A stretch of 58,737 nucleotides of DNA from a virus. Taxonomy: Duplodnaviria; Caudoviricetes. Below the pieces are notes generated by a model, which worked only from the letters and a program-made list of their open reading frames with translations, made no database searches and was not told where the DNA came from. The stretch's first letter is position 1; the number at the start of each line of letters is the position of its first letter. The position numbers and the translations under genes were made by a program. Below are positions 3,338 to 58,737 of the stretch, piece by piece. The DNA is taken from positions 1 through 58,737 of the IMG/VR virus record IMGVR_UViG_3300037150_000108; one strand, written 5' to 3'.

Positions 3338-6300
3338 ATGCGGAAGCTTCTGGCGTTACTGATTATTGGGTGCGCGTGTGCGATTCATGCACAGGTCATT
3401 GGGCTCGATCCCACGCCGATGGCTGTCTACTACTGGAACATAGGAACAAGCCAGTGGACTGCCTGCTCAAACAGTTCTACCGCCGAACCATTTCAGAGCA
3501 CTCCTCAGGCTTTTGCGCTCGAAGGATTCAACTCTGTCCTTGGCCAATGGACGCCGCAGACCTCGTGCCCAGGCAGCGGATCAGGTTCGGGACTTACCAG
3601 TTTTCAAGGGCGCACCACTGCCGCGGCTGTGCTGCTGCTGTCAGACATCAATACCGTCCTCAAGACTGCTACGAGTTGCAACGTTGCAGGCGGATACACA
3701 TACTCGCCATATTCGAACTCATGCATCCTGAGCGGAGGCGGCTTTACCGCGGGCGGAGATCTGAGCGGGACATCGACCGCGCAGACGGTGATCGGCATCC
3801 AGGGCAAGGCGGTAGTGAATACGGCGCCGACCAATGGGCAGGTGTTGACATGGAATACCGGGCTGAATGAGTACGTGCCGATTATCCCGCCCCTCGCAAC
3901 CTCGTCGACCTTCGGCACGGTCAAGCCTGACAATACGACAGTAACGATCTCCGCAGGCATTCTCTCGGCGGTGGGAGGGGGTGGTGGTTCACCATGCGCC
4001 ACGGCAAACGCGGTGCAGATTTCTACAGGCAGTGCGTTTGGTTGCGACCCGAACATCACCATCAACACCACGATACACACGCTGACCAGTCCTCAGTTAT
4101 ACGGAAACTCCGTCAACCCGGCTTATAACTCGTCTCTCGGCGCGTGGGTTCCCTACTACAATCCCTGCACAAACACACAACTGACAGGTGATACCGGGGG
4201 AGATTACACCTATTCTCAATGTCATAAAACCGTATTCAACGATTACAATCCAGGGTTCAGCTATGGCAATAGCAGCATTACCAGCAACCAAGGATGGAAC
4301 CTGCCTTATGGATATTTTTTAGATGTAAATGAGTTCGGCAATGGGATTACGAATGGAAGTGCAATAAACTATAACGCCAACAAAGAAGGTGACTCGGCAT
4401 TGTCGAATTGGAATATGTGGGCGAAACCTGCATGGATTGAAGCATCAGGAGAAGGTACACAAGCACTGCGCATAACTTTTGCCGAGCAGCCTGAGTATCT
4501 TGGCACAGTAAGCAGTGGAACTGCCGGACAGACGGTGGTCAACCTTACCTGCACATCTCATTGCGCAAACGACCCTAATAATGGCGGCGGGTCTGGAATT
4601 GGATTGAACTCTGATCTGATCGACCTAACCAGCGGACAGAGCGGCACTGGAACTTACGTGGGTGGCGGCGGGACGAGCCCCGCCTACATAACGACCAGCC
4701 TAACCGTTACCAGCTCGATCGAAGGAAGTTTCTCAGCCGCAATCGACGTTCCGCGCACTGTTGGCAACACGACAGGCCAACTTTCAAAGGCGACTATTAC
4801 CACGACGCTGAATGTGACTGGAGCTACGGCGATCACGGTCGGGCAAATTTGTTTTGCATTGGGACCGGAGTATTTTGAGCGGTTCACCCCATCGGCAGTA
4901 GGAAGTTTAGGTGGTGGAACACAATCAGTCACAGCAGTATTTCACTACTCGCACACCAGCGGAACGGTATTCTTTTGTGGAGGTTCAGCAGGTGATGCGT
5001 TAGAGCAAACTGTAACGACTGTTGGCTCTAATCGCTATGTTGAGGATGTCTATGGATCAGAAGCACCACACACGCTCATCATTGGGCATCAGATTCCTAG
5101 CGGAGTGACATCAGTATTTACCGGCTCATCCGTTGCGACCGTTCAATACCATGCAGCCTCGGTGGTTGGAGTTATAAACAGCGGCACCGGAGTACCGGAT
5201 GGGGGCCAGCTCACTGTCGATGCTAATGGTACTTTCGCTTCTGGAGATGCAGTTGAGGATACAAACAACATCGCGGCCATCTACAATCTTCTGGACTTCA
5301 GCGCTGGGGCGAGCACGATCAATAATCCCTATGCACAAAGGCTTGAGAATTCACACTCTTGGGAAGGTTTAGGCGGTGGACTGAACCCCACAACCAATGG
5401 ATTCGAATACTACGACAATACAAACGCATCCAGCAACTATTCCGGGGCCGGGGGCGGGTATATCGCCCCATGGCTATTCGACATCCAAGGCGCAGTTTTG
5501 AACGGCCTGGCGTTCCAATACGCTCCTATCTATGGTGGTGCGACCGCGGTAGGAGCGCAGGCGAACTGCGCTGGTTACATGCTGTGCGTCGCGAGTGGTC
5601 CGATTCCAGGAGCGATATCCACAGTCGAAGGAATCTTCAACGAAGGCGATCAGGCAGGGTCAATAACATATGACCACGCACCTGAAACTTTCACCCTCAG
5701 TCCTAACGTTTATATTCGTGAAGCATTGACGTTAGGAACACCGTCTGTAGATTATGGGTCAATCGTGCTTTCAGGCGCGTTTGTCAACAATCAGTACACG
5801 GGAGGAGGTCCATCTTCACAAGGTGCACTGTTCAACAGTGGAAACGGAATAACTGATCCACATGGAGAAGTAAGACTTCAAGCGTGGAACTATATTAACT
5901 ATCTGCCGACACTAGCTTTTGAAAACACCGCTGGAACGTTACTCAGTAGCATTGGCATGGATGCGGCCGGACATGTTTCGATCAACTCTGCGGCAAGAGG
6001 AGATGCACTGGGGACGCTTGATCTAGCCAATGAAACCGTCACCAATGAAATGGTCACCAAGGAAACGGTCAATGGAACGAATCACTGCGCTAACTTCCAA
6101 GTAGGGACGTCAACAGTATGCACCCCAAGCCCTTACGCGCTGTTCGAGACGGACTTCGTAATTGAAGACCCCACTGGAGCGACCGACCAGCGCCTTGCGG
6201 ATTTCATCAAGACAGGGGGCCACCTGTATGGGCGATTCGTCAACGATGCGACCACTGCAGCTAATGACTGGCTGGACGTGGCCTATGGCTCCGGTTACAC

Positions 6301-6994
6301 GGTTGCTAGTGTGACATTTCCTACGCTTACCGACTCCGCCCTAACTCCAGGCAACTGCGTGCAGGCTAGTACGGGAGGCTTGCTGACCACTACAGGCAGT
6401 CCGTGCGGCTCTGGCGGATCGGGCATCTCCGGCTTGACCGCAGGCTATATCCCTCTCGCGGGATCGGCCACGACCCTGACGGGCAACTCGCACATCGATG
6501 AGGTGACTAATGCAGGATACGACACCATATCCCAGCCAGTGATTGTCACGGGCACAGCTTCTCCCGCATCTGGTAAGGGAATCGTAGGCACGGATGGTAG
6601 CGGCAACGTCACGATATCCAACAATGGGACACCGTTTACGCCTGCCCTAACGCTCGGCGGGGCGCTGAGTTGCAGCAATCTGGCCTTTGGCACGGGAGCG
6701 GGAACTAGCCCAACCTGCACCTCGGTAAATGGCTACGACTCAACCTTCATCGTCAACATAACTACAGGGACGACGCCTGCCGCTAACAGTCCCGTGTTCA
6801 CTGTGACGTTTACGGCAAGCAGGGGCCATGTCAGCGCCTGTGCGATATCTCCGGTGTTTGGGGCGTACTCGACGACGTTGCAGATTCCTAGCACGAATAT
6901 GAGTTCTCCGAGTGCTACCAGCGTTGTGGTAGACAGCTCGGCAACCGCACTGACTGCCGCTACAGGCTACTTTTACACCTTGGTGTGCCCATGA
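3338..6994 (+). CDS. Long tail-fibre or adhesin-like protein with signal peptide (~1218 aa)
   Basis: MRKLLALLIIGCACAIHA|Q; fibre-type repeats (AGGDLSGT, APTNGQVLTWN, ATSSTFGTVKPDNTTVTIS); Gly/Ser/Thr/Cys-rich. Confidence 0.7.
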   Translation: MRKLLALLIIGCACAIHAQVIGLDPTPMAVYYWNIGTSQWTACSNSSTAEPFQSTPQAFALEGFNSVLGQWTPQTSCPGSGSGSGLTSFQGRTTAAAVLLLSDINTVLKTATSCNVAGGYTYSPYSNSCILSGGGFTAGGDLSGTSTAQTVIGIQGKAVVNTAPTNGQVLTWNTGLNEYVPIIPPLATSSTFGTVKPDNTTVTISAGILSAVGGGGGSPCATANAVQISTGSAFGCDPNITINTTIHTLTSPQLYGNSVNPAYNSSLGAWVPYYNPCTNTQLTGDTGGDYTYSQCHKTVFNDYNPGFSYGNSSITSNQGWNLPYGYFLDVNEFGNGITNGSAINYNANKEGDSALSNWNMWAKPAWIEASGEGTQALRITFAEQPEYLGTVSSGTAGQTVVNLTCTSHCANDPNNGGGSGIGLNSDLIDLTSGQSGTGTYVGGGGTSPAYITTSLTVTSSIEGSFSAAIDVPRTVGNTTGQLSKATITTTLNVTGATAITVGQICFALGPEYFERFTPSAVGSLGGGTQSVTAVFHYSHTSGTVFFCGGSAGDALEQTVTTVGSNRYVEDVYGSEAPHTLIIGHQIPSGVTSVFTGSSVATVQYHAASVVGVINSGTGVPDGGQLTVDANGTFASGDAVEDTNNIAAIYNLLDFSAGASTINNPYAQRLENSHSWEGLGGGLNPTTNGFEYYDNTNASSNYSGAGGGYIAPWLFDIQGAVLNGLAFQYAPIYGGATAVGAQANCAGYMLCVASGPIPGAISTVEGIFNEGDQAGSITYDHAPETFTLSPNVYIREALTLGTPSVDYGSIVLSGAFVNNQYTGGGPSSQGALFNSGNGITDPHGEVRLQAWNYINYLPTLAFENTAGTLLSSIGMDAAGHVSINSAARGDALGTLDLANETVTNEMVTKETVNGTNHCANFQVGTSTVCTPSPYALFETDFVIEDPTGATDQRLADFIKTGGHLYGRFVNDATTAANDWLDVAYGSGYTVASVTFPTLTDSALTPGNCVQASTGGLLTTTGSPCGSGGSGISGLTAGYIPLAGSATTLTGNSHIDEVTNAGYDTISQPVIVTGTASPASGKGIVGTDGSGNVTISNNGTPFTPALTLGGALSCSNLAFGTGAGTSPTCTSVNGYDSTFIVNITTGTTPAANSPVFTVTFTASRGHVSACAISPVFGAYSTTLQIPSTNMSSPSATSVVVDSSATALTAATGYFYTLVCP

Positions 6995-7443
6995 GAATAG
7001 TCATCCTGACCATCCTTCTTTTCACTGTGTACGCAGCCACAGCCCAGGCACCATTGAACGCAGTGCTGATTGGGCCTGAGGGCATCACCATCACGGCTAC
7101 GACAGGAACAGCGGTTAGCTATCAGTTCGGGACTGCGGGCAAGTTCAACACGGTCACAGCGCCAAAGTATCCGCTACTAGTGTCCTGCTCCAGTGCGGCT
7201 CCTTGCGCGCTACTGGGCGGAGATCCTGACCCCGGAATTGCAAAGTCGATCTACGCCATCCAGCAGACTACGGCCTACACAGTGACACTGGCGCCAGGCA
7301 CGATGATCCAAGTCCCTGCGCTCCCGAAGCCTCCTTTGACCGTGGTTAGCACTTACATAATCAGCGGGCCTGTGACCTTGACCAATTACAGCGATGGTTC
7401 GTTCATCCTGAGCGGTGCTGGCTTAACGGCGGTGAAGAAATGA
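6991..7443 (+). CDS. Secreted protein with SUEL/galactose-lectin-like motif
   Basis: Signal peptide MRIVILTILLFTVYAATAQA; C..C...GGDPDPGIAK motif; ATGA overlaps at both ends. Confidence 0.5.
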   Translation: MRIVILTILLFTVYAATAQAPLNAVLIGPEGITITATTGTAVSYQFGTAGKFNTVTAPKYPLLVSCSSAAPCALLGGDPDPGIAKSIYAIQQTTAYTVTLAPGTMIQVPALPKPPLTVVSTYIISGPVTLTNYSDGSFILSGAGLTAVKK

Positions 7444-9812
7444 AGAAACTCATTAGACTTGTAATCATTCCATTCGCTCTTGCAGTGCTGTGTGGAACAG
7501 CGTTCGGCACCACCTTCTACATCCGCGGTGATGGCGGCAACCGCATCTCCTCCACTCTTCCCTATGGAATGTGCACAGGCACAACCGACGCAGCTTATCC
7601 CGGAACCACAAACCTCAATTGGCTTCCTGGCCAAGTCTTTTCGACTACAGGATCCTCAACTGCCATCGTAGACGCGAACGGAAATTACGAGTGGGTGACG
7701 ACGGCTGGCACAACCAATGCAACTACGCTACCGACATGGCCGGCGCACGCAGCCGGAGGCTCGCCTACCACCACTGATGGCACAGTGACATGGACTTATC
7801 AAGGGCCGGCTCCTATCGATCAGTCTTGTGGTTGGAGTGATCCTCGCTATGTGTGGACAGATGGCAGCACTGCGGGATCAATGGCAATGGGTGGCGGAGA
7901 CACACTGCTGCTTGAAAACAGTTATCCTTCAGGGCAGACATCCTGGCGCTTCGCCGGCCGAGCTACTGGTGGGACCGGACTAGGCTCTTTGTTCAACGGC
8001 TACCAAGGTGGCGGCGGTGATCCATATACCGACTACAACATCAACTTCCCGGCTGGAACTTCCGGCGCTCACACCAGAATCTTGGGCGCGAATTATGCAA
8101 GTTGCGGAACGGGGCAAAAGACCAATATCTTTGGCGGCTTTGCAGCGCTCGCAGTCATCAACCTTCAACAAACCAGCTACGTTGACGTTCAATGTCTGGA
8201 TATCACCGACCACAGCAGTTGTATTTTATTCGGCAACGCGCAGTTGCCATCATATTGTCAGCATGGTGGATCCCCCTATGACGACTTTGCGGACAACGGA
8301 ATTATGACTGATACCAACGCCAGCACTGGAGGATATCAACTTCCGCACAACATCCTACTGCAAGACCTCAACATCCACGGCCTTCCGGCCTCCGGCATCG
8401 CAGGAGCTATTGGTGGAGCTTTCACGCTGACTCGCATCACCTCAAACCGCAACGGTTTTGCCGGGTGGAATTTCGACTGGACGAGCGATGGTCTCGGGCG
8501 GATTCCGAACAATCCTGCGGCCACAATCAATGCGCAGTACGTGACTATGGACTGGAATGGCTGCAACGAAGAATATCCGATGGTTGATCCTGTCCCGATC
8601 ACCTACTGCTACAGCATCATCAATGGCGGATTTGGTGATGCGTGGAGTGGACAGGATTCAAACCTCGCTTCAATGACCTGTAACCACTGCGAGATGGCTT
8701 GGAACGTGAAAGACGCCTTCTTCGGCCCGCACACGGCGCTTGGCAGCGTCACCATCACCAACTCTACCGCATTCAACAATGGCGGGCAGACGTGGAAAGC
8801 AAATCTCGCCTCTACTGGCCAATTCCTGATGCAGAACACGTTGACCAATGCCAACTGTAGAAGGCTCGCCCAACCAGTCACCGGCACTCCCTCTACATTC
8901 AACACATACATTGATATCAATGATAATTTATGTCGTTCTGACGGTGCTGCTATCTCTCTAGTGTGGCCTATAGCTGGATCATTTGAAATTGATGACAGTA
9001 CCTTCGTCAGCGCAAGTTTGAACGTCGCCCTTGACTTCGGTTGTTGGAATACATTTACCTCTGTCTCGGTCGGTGCGGGCGGAACTGGATATACGGTAGG
9101 CGACGTACTCTATGTTGGTGGGACTCAAGCGACAGTCCAAGTCACATCTACTAGTTCTGGCGGGGTTATTACAGGGCTTACGATTATATCGGGCGGCCAA
9201 GTAACGAACGCTCCGCCGTACACCAATCCATTCACTGAATACTATATCTTCGGCGGCACTGGTAGTGGAGCAGCTGTCACCGTCGTCGCAAATACGCCTG
9301 CGACTTGCAATGGCGGTCCACGCATCCTGCGCAATAATAATTTTATTGGCTATACGAACACCAGCGATTACTACTGGAACGGCTCGCAGATTACTTTTAT
9401 CTGCTACTCGTCGTGCCAAGCACAGCCCGGAACGTCCGACGATACGATGTGGACAACGCGCAGCAACAACAACTTCTACGGCTATGCATCAGGAGTTCAC
9501 GGAGCTTGCACCTATGCGGGCGAGATATGCGGCAGTCCGATTATGACGGACCAACCTTCGCAGACCTGGACCAGCGAGACACAACTTGACCCGTTCACAC
9601 CATCGCTCCCAGCCGCCAGCAATAGCTTCTACCCCAGCAGCGGCAGTCCGCTGATTGGAGCAGGGATTACTTACAGCGGCATCCCTGCGACCGACTACTA
9701 CGGCGTGACTACTACCTCGCCCCCAGTGATCGGTGGGGTGAACTATAGTGGCGGATCTCCGACATCTTTGACGATCGGAGGCGGTGTGGTGCTCAGTGGG
9801 GTGATTATCTAA
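7440..9812 (+). CDS. Secreted right-handed parallel beta-helix (pectin-lyase fold) protein, depolymerase or tailspike-like
   Basis: Signal peptide followed by TTFYIR; Asn/Gly beta-helix repeats; C-terminal PSSGSPLIGAG...TDYYG...IG motif; inserted W..G...PTWP...DGTVTW module. Confidence 0.65.
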   Translation: MKKLIRLVIIPFALAVLCGTAFGTTFYIRGDGGNRISSTLPYGMCTGTTDAAYPGTTNLNWLPGQVFSTTGSSTAIVDANGNYEWVTTAGTTNATTLPTWPAHAAGGSPTTTDGTVTWTYQGPAPIDQSCGWSDPRYVWTDGSTAGSMAMGGGDTLLLENSYPSGQTSWRFAGRATGGTGLGSLFNGYQGGGGDPYTDYNINFPAGTSGAHTRILGANYASCGTGQKTNIFGGFAALAVINLQQTSYVDVQCLDITDHSSCILFGNAQLPSYCQHGGSPYDDFADNGIMTDTNASTGGYQLPHNILLQDLNIHGLPASGIAGAIGGAFTLTRITSNRNGFAGWNFDWTSDGLGRIPNNPAATINAQYVTMDWNGCNEEYPMVDPVPITYCYSIINGGFGDAWSGQDSNLASMTCNHCEMAWNVKDAFFGPHTALGSVTITNSTAFNNGGQTWKANLASTGQFLMQNTLTNANCRRLAQPVTGTPSTFNTYIDINDNLCRSDGAAISLVWPIAGSFEIDDSTFVSASLNVALDFGCWNTFTSVSVGAGGTGYTVGDVLYVGGTQATVQVTSTSSGGVITGLTIISGGQVTNAPPYTNPFTEYYIFGGTGSGAAVTVVANTPATCNGGPRILRNNNFIGYTNTSDYYWNGSQITFICYSSCQAQPGTSDDTMWTTRSNNNFYGYASGVHGACTYAGEICGSPIMTDQPSQTWTSETQLDPFTPSLPAASNSFYPSSGSPLIGAGITYSGIPATDYYGVTTTSPPVIGGVNYSGGSPTSLTIGGGVVLSGVII

Positions 9813-51688: not shown

Positions 51689-54600
51689 ATGGCCGACGCG
51701 GTGATGGATGGACCCTGGACCGACTACGCCGCGCCTGCCAAACCACAGGCGACTGATGACGGGCCGTGGGCTGATTACGCTCCGCCTGCACCTCCCAAGT
51801 CAGTTGCTGCAACGACACCCATCCCGGAGAACTGGCCTTCGCAGACTGACGTAGACCGCCCAACCTACTACCACGGCGATCAAGGCGCTCCGGTGGGCAT
51901 GGCGCAGTCTGGACCTCCTGGTTACACGCCGCCAGCACCACCCACGCCGAAGCCGCCCATGCCTGTCTCGGAGGGCTCGATGGGCATCACAGGGATGCGG
52001 CAGAGCGGGCCTCCGGCGTTTGCTCCCCCCTCAGTAACCTTCAATGCGCCATCGCAGGGCGGCGACAATGGCGGCAGAATTTCAACCATGCCGCAGGACC
52101 GAGTAGCCGGAACGCTGCAGATGGCTCCTCCCTCAGTCGATATGCGGTACGACACCAGCCAAGACCCTAGTGGGCAGAGCGATCCCGCCGCCCGCGCCGG
52201 GATGGTTGCGCAGATGGCACAGGACCGCGCAACCGGAACTACACGCAACGCCGCACAGTCCATGCAGAATAGGCAGGACTATGAGAATTGGTCATCCAAG
52301 CTCCCGCGCCTGGTGCCTGAAGATCATCCTCTGACTCCGGAGGAACATCAGCAGATTGCGGACTTGACTGCAAAAGCGCAGGCACATAAAGGCCCGTTCA
52401 CCCCTACGTCGCAAGAAATGGATTTACTTCGCCGCGATGCTCTGCAACGACCAGGCATTGCAGGGGCAGTTGAGATGGAGTTGAGGCAGAAGCTCTCAGA
52501 CTTTAGCCGTGTAGATCAGTTGGCTATGATAATGGCGCTCCCTGAATCCAAACTGGTAAGCCTCTACTTTGGTGGGCAGATGGCCGTAGGTGCCATGCAT
52601 GAGACGCCTGCGGCATGGGCCGCTTACCAACGTGGGCACAAGGAACTCGCGGCTAGATTGGCAACCGGGGCCATAGTGGATGCGGCAATGGCTGCACTGT
52701 CCGCAAAGCACGTTGTGGGCGATACTCCCGGCAAGATAATCAACTCGTTCGGTGCCGAGAACTGGCAGGGTGATCTCCAAGTTCCTGATGAAGATGGCAC
52801 ATCTGCCAAACCACCGATGCCGGGATCGCCATACGGCCCAACTAGGGCTGCATCCCCGCCAGTTGAGCATGGACCGTGGGAGGACTTCCGGCCAGCCGCT
52901 CCGGTTGCACCCGCCCCAGTACAGGACACAACGCGCACCTTCACCGCACCGGCTAATGCAGCGCGCCGACCAATCTCCGCAGATGTTGCCCCTGCCGCGC
53001 CGCAATCTGGCGTGAAGTTCGATACCGGGCCGTTCGACTTCGATAAGTTCGAGGGCCGTCCGGTAGTGCAGGGTTCAACCGATCCCGCAGCCATTCGAGA
53101 ATCTGCCAAAGCGCAAGAGAAGCCAACCGTAGTTGCAGTAGAGAAGGCTGTCGCAGAGGTGCCGGGTGCCGAGGTAGACGGTTCTCGCCTGAAGAATGAG
53201 GCCTCGCAGCAGAACAAAGCCGACCGCGACAAGCCTGTCGAGACGCAGAAAGACCATCTAGGTGTGCGAGTTCCAGCGGACACGCCTGAAGCTCAGACGG
53301 CGGCAGTGGGCAAGATTGCCGAGCAGATGCCTGTCGTCGGGACTGAGCCGCTGGACAACAATGGGCTGAAGGGCACGCAGGTCTTTGTAAAGACTGGCGA
53401 GGCTGGAGAGGCGAACCAGACCTCAGAGGTTCAGGTTGTGCCCACATCGCAGGTTGAGGCGATGAAAGAGACTGACCCCATGTATGACGAGCAAAAGAAG
53501 GCGCTTGCGGCAGGGGACACAGCCAAGGCAGAGGAGATCGGCAAGCAGATTCACGAGATTCACGACGCTGCGCTAAAGTCTGGTGGTGGTGTCAAGAGTG
53601 ATCATTCTGGTACACTTTCGCCGGAGTCAAATTCGGAGGGTGGAGGGGATCGCGGAGAATCGCCAGAGCCGAAGGAGGGCGGAGCAGACAACGCTCTTCC
53701 CTCCCTCGATAACGCAAACGCGAAAACTAATCAAGCAGAGCCTGTTCCCCAGGCGTCCACAGAGAGTAAGGCAGTACCAACATCAGAGAGCGCGACTGGT
53801 AAAAAGGTTGCCTCAAAGTACGATTCAGCGTCCACGCAAGCCAACTTGCCCGAGAACAGCCCTGCGGCGAAGGCTGTGCGTGCGATCCAATCGCAGATCC
53901 CGAAGCCTTACCTAGCTGGCGATGGCATTGTCCAGGACCTGCATGTAACTGTGCGGTATGGACTCAAAGCAGAAGAGATAACCCCCGAGCTTCGGCAGTG
54001 GATCGAATCCCAGACTCCATTTCAGGCTAAGTTGGGCGTCACAACCAGCTTCCCGCCAAGCAAATACTCGGATGGCGCATCTCCTTTGATCGTGCCCGTC
54101 GAATCTCCTGAACTGCATAAACTCAACGCCGAGATAGAGAAGCAGGGAGACTTTGAGCCTTCCAGCTTTCCCGACTACAAGCCGCACGTCACAGTTGCGT
54201 ACCTCGACCCGAACCAGGTCAAGAACTATGAGGGTACGTGGCTGGCGAATGGCAAGTCGTTCCCTATTGACTCGATCACCGTCAGCAAGCGCGATGGGAC
54301 CACTGAAGACATTGCGTTCAAAGGGAAGTCGGCAGAGGTTGCCCCAGTCAAGGCAGGTTCCACCGTAAAGCTCCCCGATGGCCGCATCGGGCCTGTGATT
54401 GCGCTCAAGCCGAACCGCAGCGGAGATGGCTGGATCAAGGTCGGGAGTGCAAGAATTCCCTTCAAAGCAGGCGAGGCGCAGGTAGTCGACAAGAACGCGC
54501 CAGTCGAGGGCGTGACATCGGGAACCCCTGGGCACGAAACTCCCAAGCAGGGTGCAATCGCCGTAGACCTTGACAAGACCCTCGCAGAGTACAAAACAGG

Positions 54601-57600
54601 TGAGTTCCACCCCGAAGTCATCGGCAAGCCTATTCCCGAGCAGGTCGCAGCGGTCAAGCAGATGCTGGCGGATGGGAAAGACGTGTGGATCTTCACCGCG
54701 CGCGCCTCGCATCCGGACGGACTGCCTGCGGTCAAAGCGTGGACGAAGCAGCAGTTTGGCCGCGAGTTGCCGATCACAAACGTCAAGTATCCTAATTTTG
54801 AGCGATTTATCGATGACCGGGCAGAGTTGCCGGTGCAGATGCAGGAAGGCACAACTAAGCGCAACCGTGCTTTGGGAATAGATGAACCCGAGCGGATTCC
54901 TTTGAAGATGAAAGACGGCACGCCCTTTGTTCTTCAGCGGAAGTTCGCCGGACACTACGATGCTCTGGATGCAGAAGGAAACAAGATTGGGACGTTCGGA
55001 TACTTGCGCTATCCCAGCGGCGAATGGAAGATGGCAGGCGCTGAAGTAGAACCGCAATTCAGGCGCAAAGGTATCGCTACAGCCGCCTATGATGCACTCG
55101 AAAAGGTAGTCGGCGGGAAGTTTCAAGACACAGGAAGTCAGACTGACTACGGTAGATCATTCTGGGATTCCAGACGTGAGCAAGGAGGCAAGGATGCCAG
55201 TCAGCAATCTTCAGAGACGGTGGGCAAACAGCCCGAGCGGGGTAGCGGCACTCGGAGCGAAGAAAGTCAACGAGTGGAACCAGGAGTCAAAGGGAGTGAA
55301 GTTGCCGGAGAAGTCCAGCGGCCCAGCGCAGAGCCAGCAGGTGGAAGCAAGACTGCACAAGCCGGACCCGCACGCAGCGAAGGCGAAGTTCAAGGCAATG
55401 GCGGACAAGCGCAAGGGCCGGTAGAGAAGTTCAAAGCGCAGACCGAACAGCGCAAGCCGAAACCTTTGGCGCCGGGTGAATCAGCAAAGGAGCGAAATGG
55501 AAAACAAAAAGATAGTTCTAGCCCACGTACTGCGGACGCCGGAGGACGACCCGTTTCGGAAGGCGATGAGAGCGGTGGCGAAGGAACTCAACAGACGACC
55601 GAGTACAGTCCGGAAGTCACCCGCACCGAGGGCGTAGAAGACAAGCCGATCCCTGCCGCTGCACTGCAACTCAAGCCCCTGAAGGCGATGCCGCGCAATG
55701 GGACGATGCTCAAAAACTATGAGGGCGAATACCTGAAGGCTGCTCTAGAACCGGCACGCGCGGCGTGGGAGAAGCATTTGGAAGGCGTCCCTGAAGTTGG
55801 CTTTACCGAGCCGAAGACGCAGAACGGCCGCAAGCAGTTTACCGCGCAACTGATGACGGGAACCTATCCTCAGCCGTCGCTTGAAATCAAGGCGGGACGC
55901 GACAATATGTACGCGGTGATCTTCAGCGAATACCACACCCCAAAGGGCACCCAGCAGCCCATCAAAGTCGAACAGACGCTCGCCAGCGGCCTGAGCATGA
56001 AAGCGGCGAAGGATATGGCGGAAGCGCGGTTGCGCGGCGGCGAGATGACGAATCCCGGCGAACCGTTCTACTACAACAGCCGTGAAGTGCCCGACGTCAA
56101 GATCAAGAACACCGGGACAAAGCCGGATGGATTAGCGGCCAGCAAGCTCATCGTGCAGGTTCCAGGCGACGGTCGATTCACTATTCCTAACAACTTGACT
56201 GCCATCGAAGGGGCCATAGAGAAGGCTGACAAGTTCATTCCGCCGAAGGCAGACCGCTATGCGCTGCCCCGAGTTCCGAAAGCCCCGGACGAGTTCGACA
56301 ACGCGAAGCACATCGCCAACCTGAAGCGAGAGATAACGGACCTCGAAGCTGACGTGAAGCGTGCGGGCAACACTGGCGCTGCGTCGTCGTGGCAGGCCCA
56401 ACTGGATGCCACGCGGGAGCAGTTACGGGATGCGGAGGCAGGTAAGAATCAGTCCGAAGACCCGGAAGCAGGCTTCCTCGACATCTCCCCCCTCGTCAAC
56501 ATGGCTGCACCTCTGCGTGAAAACCTAGAGCATCGCAGCGAGATAGCCGACGTAGCCAACAACGTCCACGACGTTCTGCAAAGACTCGACCGCACCAACA
56601 AAGCCTCTACCCTCGAAGCCAAGGGCATTGCACGCGCTTTCCAAGATTCTGGATTCTCGAAAGAGGATGGCGATAAGGTCTTTGCCAGCATCGAAGACCC
56701 CAAAGTCCAACTGACCCCGGACCAGATCGGCCTCAAGTACAAGTGGATAGTGCCGCTCGACAAACGCGCAGCTAGCCAGCGCGCAATCACTTTGCTCATC
56801 AAGTCGCTGTCAGACAAAGATGCACAGAAGCGACGGGCGAAAGACGGAACAGAGTTCACACTCGAAGACATTCTGGCCGGCAGGGTTCCGCCCGAAGAGG
56901 TTGAGCGCGTTGCACCGGAGCAGCCGAACTACCAGCACCGCATCGCAGTAGACAAAAACACGTTGGTCGATCGCATCCTGGGCGACTCGATGAAGCGGTT
57001 CCGCGCTGGCGGATCTGCACTCTCCCGCACCTTCCCATCGAGCAATCGAAGCGTCTTCCACGAGATTCACGGTCCTGATGGCGAGAGAGAAACTGTTGCG
57101 GTCAAGCATGGCAGAGTCACTCGCTTCCGCATGGGCGCAGACGGTAAGCCGGTCCTCGAAGACTTGGGCGCCTTCCGCTCCGGCCTGACTGATGCAGGCA
57201 AGGAAACCGACGAGCGCATGGCTCCGTTCGTCCAGCGCATCACCGAATTGCGGAAAGAGATTGCGGAGATGCCCGAGGCTGACAGGCAGGAACAACTTGC
57301 CAGCGTGCAAGCGAAGATTGCCGACCTGCGCAAGCAGATGGACTTGCTCGATAAGGTCAAAGCTCCGGTAGGACGCACTTCGATGTTCGGCGGGAAGGTT
57401 GTCTATTCGACCGAGCCCACCTTTGGGCAGCGTGCGGAGATCTCGCGCAAGCTCGACGTACTCCTGAAGCGCGAGGAGCGGCTGAAGAACAGCACCGAGC
57501 CGATGCTCAAGAAGAATGTAACCAAGATGGAAGCCCGCAAGGAAGAGTTGAAGGGCAATGAAGACTTCCGCGATGCTGCACTCGACGAAGGCGAGAAGAT

Positions 57601-58737
57601 GCAGGGCAGGGTGTGGAAGGACAAGAACGGCGACCAGTGGAAGTTTGACCGCGGCACCACGAAATTCATCTCCCAGCAGACCGGCCAGGAGTACCACGCC
57701 AACGCCATGCTTTCCTCGCTGGTCAATTGGATGGAGACGAACAAGGCCATGAACGCCGCCGTCGTCATGGAGCGGCTGAAGGGCATCCTTGCGGATGAGG
57801 GTATGGCAGTCAAGTCGGATAATCCTCTGACCGTGCCCGACGGATGGAAGGGCACGACGTTGCAGCAGATGCGCGGCTACTACTTCCCGACGCACATCGC
57901 AGAAGCTCTGGACCAGTTTGACTACCTCCAAAGTCGGGGGCAGCCGAATATCGCAGAGAAGGCCAACCGCTTCATAATACAGACGGTGCTGATGAATCCG
58001 CTCATGCACGGCAAGAACATCGCAGCCAACTTCTTCACTGGCAAGGCAGCGGAGGCAATCACCGGGCGCGCTCTGGTTCCACGATGGTACGGAGACAACG
58101 CCAAGGCAGGCGTGAAGGCCGTCAACACCCTCAAGGACATGGGAGGGCCGGAGTACCGCCGTCTGTTGCGCCTGGGGCTTGATTTGCAGGGAGCAAGCAC
58201 CTCCTTCGACCAGACGACCAAGGACATTCTGCGAGGGTTCACCGACCAACTTGCGGCCGAGCCAGCGCAGAACAAAGCTCTGAGCGCGCTGATGGGCATA
58301 GCGGACGCCGGGAAGTGGTTGCAAGACAAGAACCATCTTGCAACCTTCGGCATCAACGACTTATTCCTGTTGCAATCGTTCTACGCACGCGAGTCCGAAC
58401 TCGAACGCCAAGGCATGCCTCAGGAGCAGGCGGAGACGGCAGCACGCGATTGGGCGCATCTCCAGGTAGCTGAGTACACGACGCCTATCCGGGTGGGTGG
58501 AAGTGCAGCGTTGGGCCGGCTGATGGAGAATCCGAACCTCTCAGCCTTCTGGCGCTACCACTTTGGCGGCATCTTGCGGCCGGTAATGAACGCCGTATCG
58601 GACGCAGTCGGATCGTTCAAGCCTGAGGAGGAAAGTGATCGCAACTCCCGAGGCCAGACCGAAGCGCAGGCCCGCATCAATGCGATTGCGCGGCTGGTGG
58701 TGTTGACAGCCTTCGCAACTGTCGTCTTTCCGAAGGT
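51689..58737 (+). CDS. Giant polyvalent ejection protein (>2300 aa, 3'-truncated): RelA/SpoT-like, 2H phosphoesterase, HAD phosphatase, GNAT, helical C-terminal region
   Basis: ATG right after the upstream TAG; no stop seen where translated by hand, and its absence from the ORF track is consistent with running off the window; motifs RLK/DHLGVRV/EVQ, LHVTVRYG/PHVTVAY, DLDKT/FTAR/IDDR, FRRKGIA. Confidence 0.85.
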   Translation, partial: MADAVMDGPWTDYAAPAKPQATDDGPWADYAPPAPPKSVAATTPIPENWPSQTDVDRPTYYHGDQGAPVGMAQSGPPGYTPPAPPTPKPPMPVSEGSMGITGMRQSGPPAFAPPSVTFNAPSQGGDNGGRISTMPQDRVAGTLQMAPPSVDMRYDTSQDPSGQSDPAARAGMVAQMAQDRATGTTRNAAQSMQNRQDYENWSSKLPRLVPEDHPLTPEEHQQIADLTAKAQAHKGPFTPTSQEMDLLRRDALQRPGIAGAVEMELRQKLSDFSRVDQLAMIMALPESKLVSLYFGGQMAVGAMHETPAAWAAYQRGHKELAARLATGAIVDAAMAALSAKHVVGDTPGKIINSFGAENWQGDLQVPDEDGTSAKPPMPGSPYGPTRAASPPVEHGPWEDFRPAAPVAPAPVQDTTRTFTAPANAARRPISADVAPAAPQSGVKFDTGPFDFDKFEGRPVVQGSTDPAAIRESAKAQEKPTVVAVEKAVAEVPGAEVDGSRLKNEASQQNKADRDKPVETQKDHLGVRVPADTPEAQTAAVGKIAEQMPVVGTEPLDNNGLKGTQVFVKTGEAGEANQTSEVQVVPTSQVEAMKETDPMYDEQKKALAAGDTAKAEEIGKQIHEIHDAALKSGGGVKSDHSGTLSPESNSEGGGDRGESPEPKEGGADNALPSLDNANAKTNQAEPVPQASTESKAVPTSESATGKKVASKYDSASTQANLPENSPAAKAVRAIQSQIPKPYLAGDGIVQDLHVTVRYGLKAEEITPELRQWIESQTPFQAKLGVTTSFPPSKYSDGASPLIVPVESPELHKLNAEIEKQGDFEPSSFPDYKPHVTVAYLDPNQVKNYEGTWLANGKSFPIDSITVSKRDGTTEDIAFKGKSAEVAPVKAGSTVKLPDGRIGPVIALKPNRSGDGWIKVGSARIPFKAGEAQVVDKNAPVEGVTSGTPGHETPKQGAIAVDLDKTLAEYKTGEFHPEVIGKPIPEQVAAVKQMLADGKDVWIFTARASHPDGLPAVKAWTKQQFGRELPITNVKYPNFERFIDDRAELPVQMQEGTTKRNRALGIDEPERIPLKMKDGTPFVLQRKFAGHYDALDAEGNKIGTFGYLRYPSGEWKMAGAEVEPQFRRKGIATAAYDALEKVVGGKFQDTGSQTDYGRSFWDSRREQGGKDASQQSSETVGKQPERGSGTRSEESQRVEPGVKGSEVAGEVQRPSAEPAGGSKTAQAGPARSEGEVQGNGGQAQGPVEKFKAQTEQRKPKPLAPGESAKERNGKQKDSSSPRTADAGGRPVSEGDESGGEGTQQTTEYSPEVTRTEGVEDKPIPAAALQLKPLKAMPRNGTMLKNYEGEYLKAALEPARAAWEKHLEGVPEVGFTEPKTQNGRKQFTAQLMTGTYPQPSLEIKAGRDNMYAVIFSEYHTPKGTQQPIKVEQTLASGLSMKAAKDMAEARLRGGEMTNPGEPFYYNSREVPDVKIKNTGTKPDGLAASKLIVQVPGDGRFTIPNNLTAIEGAIEKADKFIPPKADRYALPRVPKAPDEFDNAKHIANLKREITDLEADVKRAGNTGAASSWQAQLDATREQLRDAEAGKNQSEDPEAGFLDISPLVNMAAPLRENLEHRSEIADVANNVHDVLQRLDRTNKASTLEAKGIARAFQDSGFSKEDGDKVFASIEDPKVQLTPDQIGLKYKWIVPLDKRAASQRAITLLIKSLSDKDAQKRRAKDGTEFTLEDILAGRVPPEEVERVAPEQPNYQHRIAVDKNTLVDRILGDSMKRFRAGGSALSRTFPSSNRSVFHEIHGPDGERETVAVKHGRVTRFRMGADGKPVLEDLGAFRSGLTDAGKETDERMAPFVQRITELRKEIAEMPEADRQEQLASVQAKIADLRKQMDLLDKVKAPVGRTSMFGGKVVYSTEPTFGQRAEISRKLDVLLKREERLKNSTEPMLKKNVTKMEARKEELKGNEDFRDAALDEGEKMQGRVWKDKNGDQWKFDRGTTKFISQQTGQEYHANAMLSSLVNWMETNKAMNAAVVMERLKGILADEGMAVKSDNPLTVPDGWKGTTLQQMRGYYFPTHIAEALDQFDYLQSRGQPNIAEKANRFIIQTVLMNPLMHGKNIAANFFTGKAAEAITGRALVPRWYGDNAKAGVKAVNTLKDMGGPEYRRLLRLGLDLQGASTSFDQTTKDILRGFTDQLAAEPAQNKALSALMGIADAGKWLQDKNHLATFGINDLFLLQSFYARESELERQGMPQEQAETAARDWAHLQVAEYTTPIRVGGSAALGRLMENPNLSAFWRYHFGGILRPVMNAVSDAVGSFKPEEESDRNSRGQTEAQARINAIARLVVLTAFATVVFPK
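55194..55424 (+). CDS. Small basic protein overprinted in the +1 frame of the giant gene (76 aa)
   Basis: SD AAGGAGG; MPVSNLQRRWANSPSGVAALGAKKVNEWNQESKGVKLPEK. Confidence 0.6.
   Translation: MPVSNLQRRWANSPSGVAALGAKKVNEWNQESKGVKLPEKSSGPAQSQQVEARLHKPDPHAAKAKFKAMADKRKGR
55497..55637 (+). CDS. Second small overprinted ORF in the +1 frame (46 aa)
   Basis: SD AAGGAG; MENKKIVLAHVLRTPEDDPFRKAMRAVAKELNRR... Confidence 0.45.
   Translation: MENKKIVLAHVLRTPEDDPFRKAMRAVAKELNRRPSTVRKSPAPRA

Follow-up and report, generated by a model that had tools for sequence, protein, structure and literature searches.

A linear viral contig of 58,737 bp (IMG/VR record IMGVR_UViG_3300037150_000108; the whole stretch is referred to below as the window, and its completeness was estimated at 73%) carries a giant gene inside which two small open reading frames (ORFs), ORF1 and ORF2, are located on the same strand and in the +1 frame. 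By combining homology searches, start signals and a frame-specific analysis of selection, it appears highly probable that ORF1, and very probably ORF2 as well, are real coding genes embedded in a giant gene of the polyvalent type, whose product is named P0001 here. Each of them is a whole ORF within a larger same-strand ORF, in a different frame and with a ribosome-binding site (RBS) and start codon of its own, which is the arrangement known as embedded-gene architecture.

A previous sequence-only reading of the window had given the positions, the Shine-Dalgarno (SD) motifs and the +1 frame of both ORFs exactly as they are found here (Table 1). It had also described the main frame as open and yet turned into a low-complexity linker of Gly, Ser, Glu and Gln (G/S/E/Q) at this place, which agrees with the composition of P0001, since residues 1151-1299 are the part of the protein that is richest in these four residues. 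They make up 50% of this segment vs 26% elsewhere in P0001, and hydrophobic residues account for 9% vs 25% elsewhere, so that few parts of P0001 are less hydrophobic. The protein-wide G/S/E/Q maximum, a stretch of 149 residues, begins at residue 1161, inside the linker span. No conservation of the linker could be seen in the relatives of the giant protein.

Table 1. Positions of the nested genes, their start signals and other features of the giant gene in the window
Feature	Position in window	Strand	Residues of P0001	Description
Giant host ORF	51689..58735	+		Open frame, 2349 aa (P0001); 3' end beyond the window
2H-phosphoesterase/Acb1-like domain	53936-54298	+	750-870	Pfam/PHROG matches
HAD-like phosphatase segment		+	949-1020	Pfam/PHROG matches
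GNAT-like segment	54950..55108	+	1088-1140	Pfam PF00583, E=0.0021, 18.7 bits (cut-off 20.7)
Main-frame low-complexity linker	55139..55585	+	1151-1299	Overlies both nested genes; G/S/E/Q composition
SD motif AAGGAGG	55182..55188	+		5 nt ahead of the ORF1 start
ORF1	55194..55424	+		ATG 55194, TAG 55422-55424; 76 aa; +1 frame of the giant ORF
ORF1 conserved core (residues 1-40)	55194..55313	+		Three short helices predicted
Imperfect direct repeat, 31 nt	55385-55415 and 55426-55456	+		23/31 identical; spacing 41 nt (frame-shifting)
SD motif AAGGAG	55487..55492	+		4 nt ahead of the ORF2 start
ORF2	55497..55637	+		ATG 55497, TAG 55635-55637; 46 aa; +1 frame of the giant ORF

The ORF1 protein family

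An exhaustive phmmer search with ORF1 against 1.84 billion representatives (E≤1e-3) generated 74 matches, including 58 of ≤100 aa and nine of >200 aa. The best match is a 63-aa protein (E=1.9e-13, 58% identity), and its residues 1-60 are aligned to residues 1-60 of ORF1. An alignment of ORF1 and 47 small matches provided the family consensus MPxxSxxQRRWxNSPxGxKALGxxKVxEWNxASKGxxLPE, the near-invariant positions of which (M1, S4, Q7, W10, G16, G21, V25, L37 and P38) are all kept in ORF1. ORF1 begins at the Met-Pro of the family itself, so that the alignment runs from N-terminus to N-terminus, and the family profile detected only one copy in the window (55194-55382, E=1.4e-25). Thus, the homology check suggested by the sequence-only reading did find standalone homologues, and the resemblance to small basic standalone phage proteins, which had been proposed there, was borne out: 46 of the 74 distinct copies in the census described below are standalone genes, and ORF1 has a net charge of +10, the same as the family median.

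The median length of the family is 54 aa, and the additional length of ORF1 corresponds to a C-terminal tail that does not belong to the family. This tail, which reads KFKAMADKRK in the +1 frame, duplicates the neighboring KFKAQTEQRK of the main frame, because the 41-nt spacing of the direct repeat shifts the frame. The 23 matches of the repeat exceed the maximum of 22 among 200 dinucleotide shuffles, and an EKFKA motif is present in the main frame at the repeat position in two giant-protein relatives (P0002 and P0006). A BLASTP comparison of the +1 products with the giant-protein relatives gave weak matches only, which were not relied on.

Based on the family alignment, AlphaFold2 placed the helices of the conserved core at residues 5-11, 14-20 and 22-32 (predicted local distance difference test, pLDDT, of 83-94 for the block). 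No Pfam match to ORF1 was found at E≤0.1, and nothing meaningful was found for 48 family members, for which nine Pfam families matched at E≤1; PHROG scans of ORF1 and the 48 members also gave nothing meaningful. The family profile had 0 matches among PDB sequences, and the best Foldseek results for the ORF1 model (E-values of 2 and 6 against BFVD and PDB) were uninformative. The Atlas returned only clusters of viral 'hypothetical protein' and a weak lead to DUF3008 (PF11450; 0.82, 37% of one cluster). This candidate was rejected, as it was absent among the Pfam matches of the family members at E≤1 and gave no match at E≤10 when searched against the window.

No match could be found by tblastn of ORF1 and of the copy in locus L013 against GenBank phages, and the family has so far been seen only in uncultured contigs and four contigs of metagenome-assembled genomes (MAGs). 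When ten ORFs upstream of standalone copies were tested, two corresponded to the portal protein and the other eight had no name; wherever a name was available, the standalone copy thus sits directly behind a portal gene, in the head/portal neighborhood. Judging from its distribution, the ORF1 family appears to be old and widespread among phages.

Recurrence of the nested arrangement

Related loci were collected by a viral-contig scan with the ORF1 family, in which 80 of 151 relatives were taken as loci, by a genome scan with the same family, which provided the four MAG contigs, and by a metagenome scan with the giant-protein alignment as query, which identified nine relatives of the host gene. 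A viral-contig scan with a segment of the giant protein as query produced zero relatives. The copy census was based on a profile scan of the window and loci L003-L096 (domain E≤1e-5), whose 88 matches represent the 74 distinct DNA copies. In addition to the standalone copies (46/74), 15 of the 74, including that of the window, are nested: they lie within an open frame of ≥500 aa on the same strand, and the small gene is always in the +1 frame of the giant one. The family domain also occurs in frame, either inside a protein of 500-1343 aa (9/74) or at the C-terminus (3/74), and there is one odd case (L060, 1/74). Two additional, divergent nested copies (L084 and L085) were below the census threshold.

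Within the giant-gene family of P0001, a nested copy is present in 6 of 11 DNA loci (window, L084, L085, L086, L090 and L092), where it is located downstream of the HAD-like domain. BLASTP of ten host ORFs from viral contigs revealed no match to P0001. Pfam domains in the hosts of nested copies include LPD1 and LPD5 (L022), InPase, LPD1 and AAA_34/ResIII (L045), and InPase (L054), so that several of these hosts carry domains typical of large polyvalent proteins. Conservation of the +1 frame in relatives, the absence of which had been named as a possible refutation, was observed for both ORFs in related as well as unrelated giant genes.

In L042 (3569-7597) and L016 (6341-9340), the family domain is found in frame at about residues 217-265 and is directly followed by a GNAT acetyltransferase domain (274-368); the order is opposite in the window, where the nested gene directly follows the GNAT-like segment. 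Two further loci have features of their own. The nested-copy host of L022 (736-9786, 3017 aa) has a LAGLIDADG domain at residues 2434-2498, possibly an intein or a homing endonuclease inside the giant gene. In L060, a 656-aa ORF (5228-7195) has the family domain in frame at its C-terminus, and a 777-aa frame in a different reading frame (7002-9332) starts exactly at the Met codon of the family domain; this locus could be an intermediate between fused and nested forms, or a frameshift.

Selection on the two frames

The frame-specific test recommended by the sequence-only reading indicated that the +1 frame is under purifying selection. Applied to 13 nested copies, the Nei-Gojobori method gave proportions of nonsynonymous and synonymous differences (pN and pS) of 0.321 and 0.592 in the small frame and of 0.42 and 0.329 in the giant frame, with nonsynonymous-to-synonymous ratios (dN/dS) of 0.36 vs 1.42; as simple dN/dS is biased in overlaps, the direction of this contrast counts as evidence and its size does not. 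The pN of standalone copies (0.328) is equal to that of the nested small frame, and nested copies are identical to one another at 56% of amino acids when read in the small frame vs 35% when read in the giant frame. At codon positions 1/2/3 of the small frame, pairwise nucleotide differences were 0.357/0.300/0.464 in nested copies (n=11) and 0.360/0.318/0.631 in standalone copies (n=35); the similar values at positions 1 and 2 indicate that nested copies are as constrained there as free genes. In nested copies, the least variable of the three positions is the third position of the giant frame itself. Moreover, stops in the frame that corresponds to the giant gene's offset are found in 0 of 11 nested copies vs 33 of 35 standalone copies, implying that nested copies have lost the stops of that frame and that the read-through of the giant frame also matters.

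In a tree based on 45 columns, the resolution of which is poor, nested and standalone copies are interleaved, with nine label changes, at least two of which are forced by supported branches. Part of the divergence among nested copies could thus predate capture, and for this reason the selection test was repeated on pairs with homologous giant-frame flanks, which were taken to mean that the nested state had been inherited. The pN/pS ratio was lower in the small frame than in the giant frame in L064/L075/L081 (0.18-0.21 vs 2.2-4.0), L013-L032 (0.47 vs 1.24), L054-L082 (0.45 vs 1.15), L084-L085 (0.42 vs 1.93) and L086-L092 (0.65 vs 1.51). These comparisons show selection on the small frames only; the main-frame reading, a low-complexity stretch free of selection, exists in nested copies alone.

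Start signals and features of the single sequence

Of the 17 nested starts, some of which belong to related loci, 14 have an SD 5-mer at -17..-4, vs a background of 6% of positions across the giant ORFs concerned. All 17 nested copies are intact. Homology begins at the ATG, or at a GTG in L085 and L086. In four loci (L082, L022, L075 and L081), the small frame has a stop 1-4 codons upstream of the ATG, which leaves hardly any room for a frameshift fusion and favors independent internal initiation.

Within the window itself, the codon-position G+C content over ORF1 is 0.60/0.47/0.78 in the +1 frame and 0.78/0.60/0.47 in the main frame, and only the former matches the pattern of ordinary window genes. 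The motif AAGGAG-N3-10-ATG occurs at seven sites on the + strand of the window, and three of the five sites outside ORF1 and ORF2 are at the starts of long ORFs (36522, 38424 and 42684). The unusual feature of this single sequence is the combination of the ORFs with SD and ATG: in a test that was chosen post hoc, 0.3% of shuffles contained two alternative-frame ORFs of ≥46 aa with an SD ahead of the start. Further +1 ATG ORFs in the giant gene are located at 52788-53015 (75 aa), 54672-54881 (69 aa), 57192-57371 (59 aa) and 57558-57752 (64 aa), and none of these four has a strict AAGGAG-N3-10-ATG ahead of its start.

ORF2 and its homologues

A tblastn search with ORF2 against the fetched loci identified a 47-aa ORF in the +1 frame of L086, which shares PEDDPFRKAM with ORF2 and has AAGGAG and ATG ahead. 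A profile of the two then revealed nested copies in L092 (two), L097 and L098, together with the small predicted proteins P0082-84, and the conserved core can be written as P-E/K-DDPFRKAM-x-A-x-A-x-x-LN. All six ORF2 copies of known context, from five contigs including the window, are nested in the +1 frame of a giant ORF, and AAGGAG precedes the ATG in the homologues of L086, L092 (both copies) and L097, whose starts were read. In all three pairwise comparisons, pN/pS was 0.45-0.52 in the ORF2 frame vs 1.28-1.85 in the giant frame, and wherever the window and L086 differ within the 10-residue core PEDDPFRKAM, the change is silent when read in the frame of ORF2.

Nested genes of both kinds occur together in the window, L086 and L092, with the ORF1-family gene upstream. 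The giant gene of L092 (2828 aa) contains two ORF2-like genes (3427-3636 and 6001-6156) and an ORF1-family gene at 2701, all three in the +1 frame and each with AAGGAG(G) ahead. The Pfam domain HTH_38 was considered for ORF2 and rejected, as the match covers 16 residues with 16.6 bits vs a cut-off of 27 (E=0.0065) and the motif is not kept in the homologues.

Strength of the evidence and alternative explanations

Several points weigh against the interpretation of ORF1 and ORF2 as genes. The lengths of the ORFs alone are ordinary for a G+C-rich giant gene: the +1 ATG ORFs in it measure 76, 75, 69, 64, 59, 48, 46 and 46 aa, and an ORF of at least 76 aa in this frame arises in 97% of 1000 synonymous-codon shuffles. 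The SD count was made over related loci, the 17 nested ones not all being independent, and SD is missing in three nested copies that form one clade (L064, L075 and L081). The case for translation of ORF1 and ORF2 draws on selection and on conserved SD motifs and start codons, and any function of ORF1 is unsupported by Pfam, PHROG or solved-structure matches. The most diverged nested pairs (small-protein identity ≤0.5) show a low contrast between the frames (0.6-1.1 vs 0.7-1.2), and the estimator is affected by the constraint that one frame places on the synonymous sites of the other. For ORF2, a word-based homologue search found nothing, the evidence comes from about three lineages (the window, the L086/L097/L098 group and the L092 group), and no standalone relative was seen in word- or pattern-based, non-exhaustive searches.

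If both +1 ORFs were spurious products of a G+C-rich gene, with SD-like motifs arising from Gln-Gly-Gly and Lys-Glu codons, ORFs as long as the 75, 69, 64 and 59 aa of the other examples and the frequent success of the shuffles would be expected, and the two AAGGAG-N3-10-ATG sites (null mean 1.37) would not be unusual. However, such a coincidence is exceedingly improbable in view of the family match of ORF1 (E=1.9e-13, profile 1.4e-25), the purifying selection on nested homologues and the conserved start of ORF2 homologues; for ORF2, a main-frame constraint as the source of similarity is disfavored by the main-frame pN/pS of 1.3-1.9. It is improbable that the small gene is an untranslated relic, trapped or frameshifted recently and no longer expressed, with its conservation reflecting the history before capture. 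The interleaved tree is compatible with some divergence of that age, but the clades with homologous flanks still have a pN/pS of 0.18-0.65 in the small frame vs 1.15-4.0 in the giant frame, 17 of 17 nested copies are intact with SD in 14, and nested pN equals standalone pN. A very improbable explanation is that the small domain is never made separately and that programmed +1 frameshifting yields a truncated giant protein with this domain at its C-terminus. The in-frame occurrences in larger proteins (nine internal, three C-terminal and L060) would be in line with it, as would the stretch of 55-117 open codons that precedes the ATG in the small frame at some nested loci; the stops close to the ATG in L082, L022, L075 and L081 and a homology that always starts at the ATG (GTG in L085 and L086), with SD in front, are not. 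Finally, sequencing or assembly indels could have displaced a domain that is truly in frame, as in-frame versions exist in other phages. The probability of this is practically negligible: contigs from runs X2, X3 and X4, which belong to different studies, showed 0 differences and 0 gaps where they cover the window (X2 and X4 jointly 55174-55579; X3 up to 55195 and 55382-55532), which excludes an assembly error, and the same frame relation, with ATG and SD kept, was found at 15 distinct loci.

The origin of the two genes should be considered separately. The sequence-only reading had proposed that whole genes were captured into a linker, and this part fits ORF1, whose family is mostly standalone (46/74) and whose overlapping linker reading appears free of selection. 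For ORF2, there is almost an even chance of an origin other than capture, namely that it arose de novo when the linker was overprinted in this lineage of giant genes, as all six copies of known context (five contigs) are nested, the family is confined to relatives of the giant gene, and the word- and pattern-based searches found no standalone copy; these searches were not exhaustive, however.

Proposed expression and origin

Under the favored interpretation of two nested coding genes, the giant protein would be read straight through both of them, the shared DNA serving in its frame as an unconstrained Gly/Ser/Glu/Gln-rich linker between domains. Each small gene would keep its own SD and start codon, most likely with internal initiation on the mRNA of the giant gene, and ribosomes elongating in the main frame would translate the same DNA as a flexible linker. 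Because such a linker tolerates almost any residue, the two frames would be in little conflict. For ORF1, the small-gene frame is probably ancestral and the linker reading a derived 'overprint', since the family is widely distributed and mostly free-standing.

With low confidence, the small protein may work together with the giant protein in which it is embedded. The fusions and the adjacency to GNAT (L042, L016 and the window) suggest that it possibly acts with the host protein; a complex prediction for the GNAT-like segment and ORF1 residues 1-50 had a score of 0.02, which gives no answer and is evidence neither for nor against binding. A broader scenario, to which somewhat less than an even chance is given, is that giant genes grow by reading through small genes between their modules, turning them into linkers, while the small protein is an obligate partner and the module spreads. 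In that scenario, the gene that is read through would survive as a fully functional out-of-frame gene, its product might be, e.g., a chaperone, an adaptor or a co-packaged factor that is always co-expressed from the same mRNA, and the 'gene-in-linker' module would spread among unrelated polyvalent genes through recombination.

Comparison with known systems

In the Rz/Rz1 spanins of lambda-like phages, the smaller gene has a start and an RBS of its own and is contained entirely in the larger one, on the same strand and in the +1 frame. Many phages have this layout, in which neither product is dispensable. This embedded pair is probably the closest known architecture; ORF1 and ORF2 are likewise whole small genes with their own starts and the same +1 embedding. 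The host there is a small membrane protein, whereas here it is a giant multi-domain protein; moreover, the overlapped part of the host appears to be a selection-free linker, and the embedded gene also exists in free-standing form and as an in-frame domain. An identity with the o-spanin Rz1 was rejected, as neither ORF1 nor ORF2 contains cysteine, so that they have no lipobox and cannot be lipoproteins. Viral overprinting, such as phiX174 E within D, or K/B, likewise yields two proteins from one DNA stretch in different frames. The case of ORF1 is similar in having one ordered and conserved frame and another with a biased composition and probable disorder. Usually, overprinting involves an embedded frame that is young and of de novo origin; ORF1 would reverse this polarity, as its embedded gene appears old and widespread and the linker of the host young. 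What seems unusual here is this overprinting of an old gene by a young linker, recurring across unrelated giant genes.

Large polyvalent proteins have been described in phages and conjugative elements (Iyer, Burroughs and Aravind 2017, PMC5512222). As in that account, P0001 and several hosts of nested copies have unrelated enzymatic domains strung on a giant protein; LPD domains were found in the hosts of L022 and L045 but not in the protein of the window. In the text of PMC5512222, the words 'overlapping' and 'frameshift' have 0 occurrences and out-of-frame genes are not described. In mycobacteriophage Ms6, a second endolysin is reported to be made from an in-frame nested gene inside lysA (PMC3111421). 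Internal initiation in a larger phage gene leads to a second product in a similar way, but the Ms6 products have the reading frame and the sequence in common with the host protein, whereas those considered here are in different frames and unrelated. Within the open-access full-text library that was searched, no account was found of out-of-frame genes that lie in polyvalent or giant genes of phages.

Standard gene callers forbid genes within genes, and the family is thus invisible to annotation in at least 15 distinct giant phage genes. The case also appears unusually clean, with all selection in one frame and none in the other. It suggests a route by which polyvalent proteins may gain linkers and fuse modules, and it offers a setting in which internal initiation on phage mRNAs of great length can be tested directly. 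The small basic protein is probably linked in function to giant anti-host proteins.

The host gene and its phage

P0001 has six full-length relatives (P0002-P0007) of 2076-2972 aa, in some of which GGDEF (PF00990) or RelA/SpoT (PF04607) replaces domains of the P0001 type. Several unrelated effector or enzymatic domains are thus present on one giant polypeptide, as is characteristic of polyvalent proteins, and no LPD domain was detected in P0001 by the Pfam scan. The modular domain set and the domain swaps among relatives suggest a modular giant protein of the polyvalent type, and the host gene, which the sequence-only reading had called an ejection-protein gene, appears better described as encoding a large multi-domain protein. 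The GNAT-like segment sits just upstream of the nested genes. The 2H domain was matched by Pfam Acb1 (anti-CBASS) with E=1.8e-5 and 24.9 bits, slightly under the cut-off of 27, and the giant protein may be able to break down cyclic-nucleotide immune signals.

The phage comes from peat and belongs to a very poorly sampled lineage, since PHROG gave 0 matches for ten large neighboring proteins of the window and the nested-gene region had no DNA or protein match among GenBank phages (50,697 records).

A variant of the giant gene was found in the contig from run X3, which carries an in-frame deletion of 807 nt (269 codons, 55659-56465). This contig matches the window up to 55658 and resumes at 56466, so that the deletion starts 21 nt past the ORF2 stop. 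It would fit module shuffling with a boundary directly behind ORF2. A parallel to this boundary exists in L086, where the ORF2-like gene lies immediately ahead of the conserved C-terminal region.

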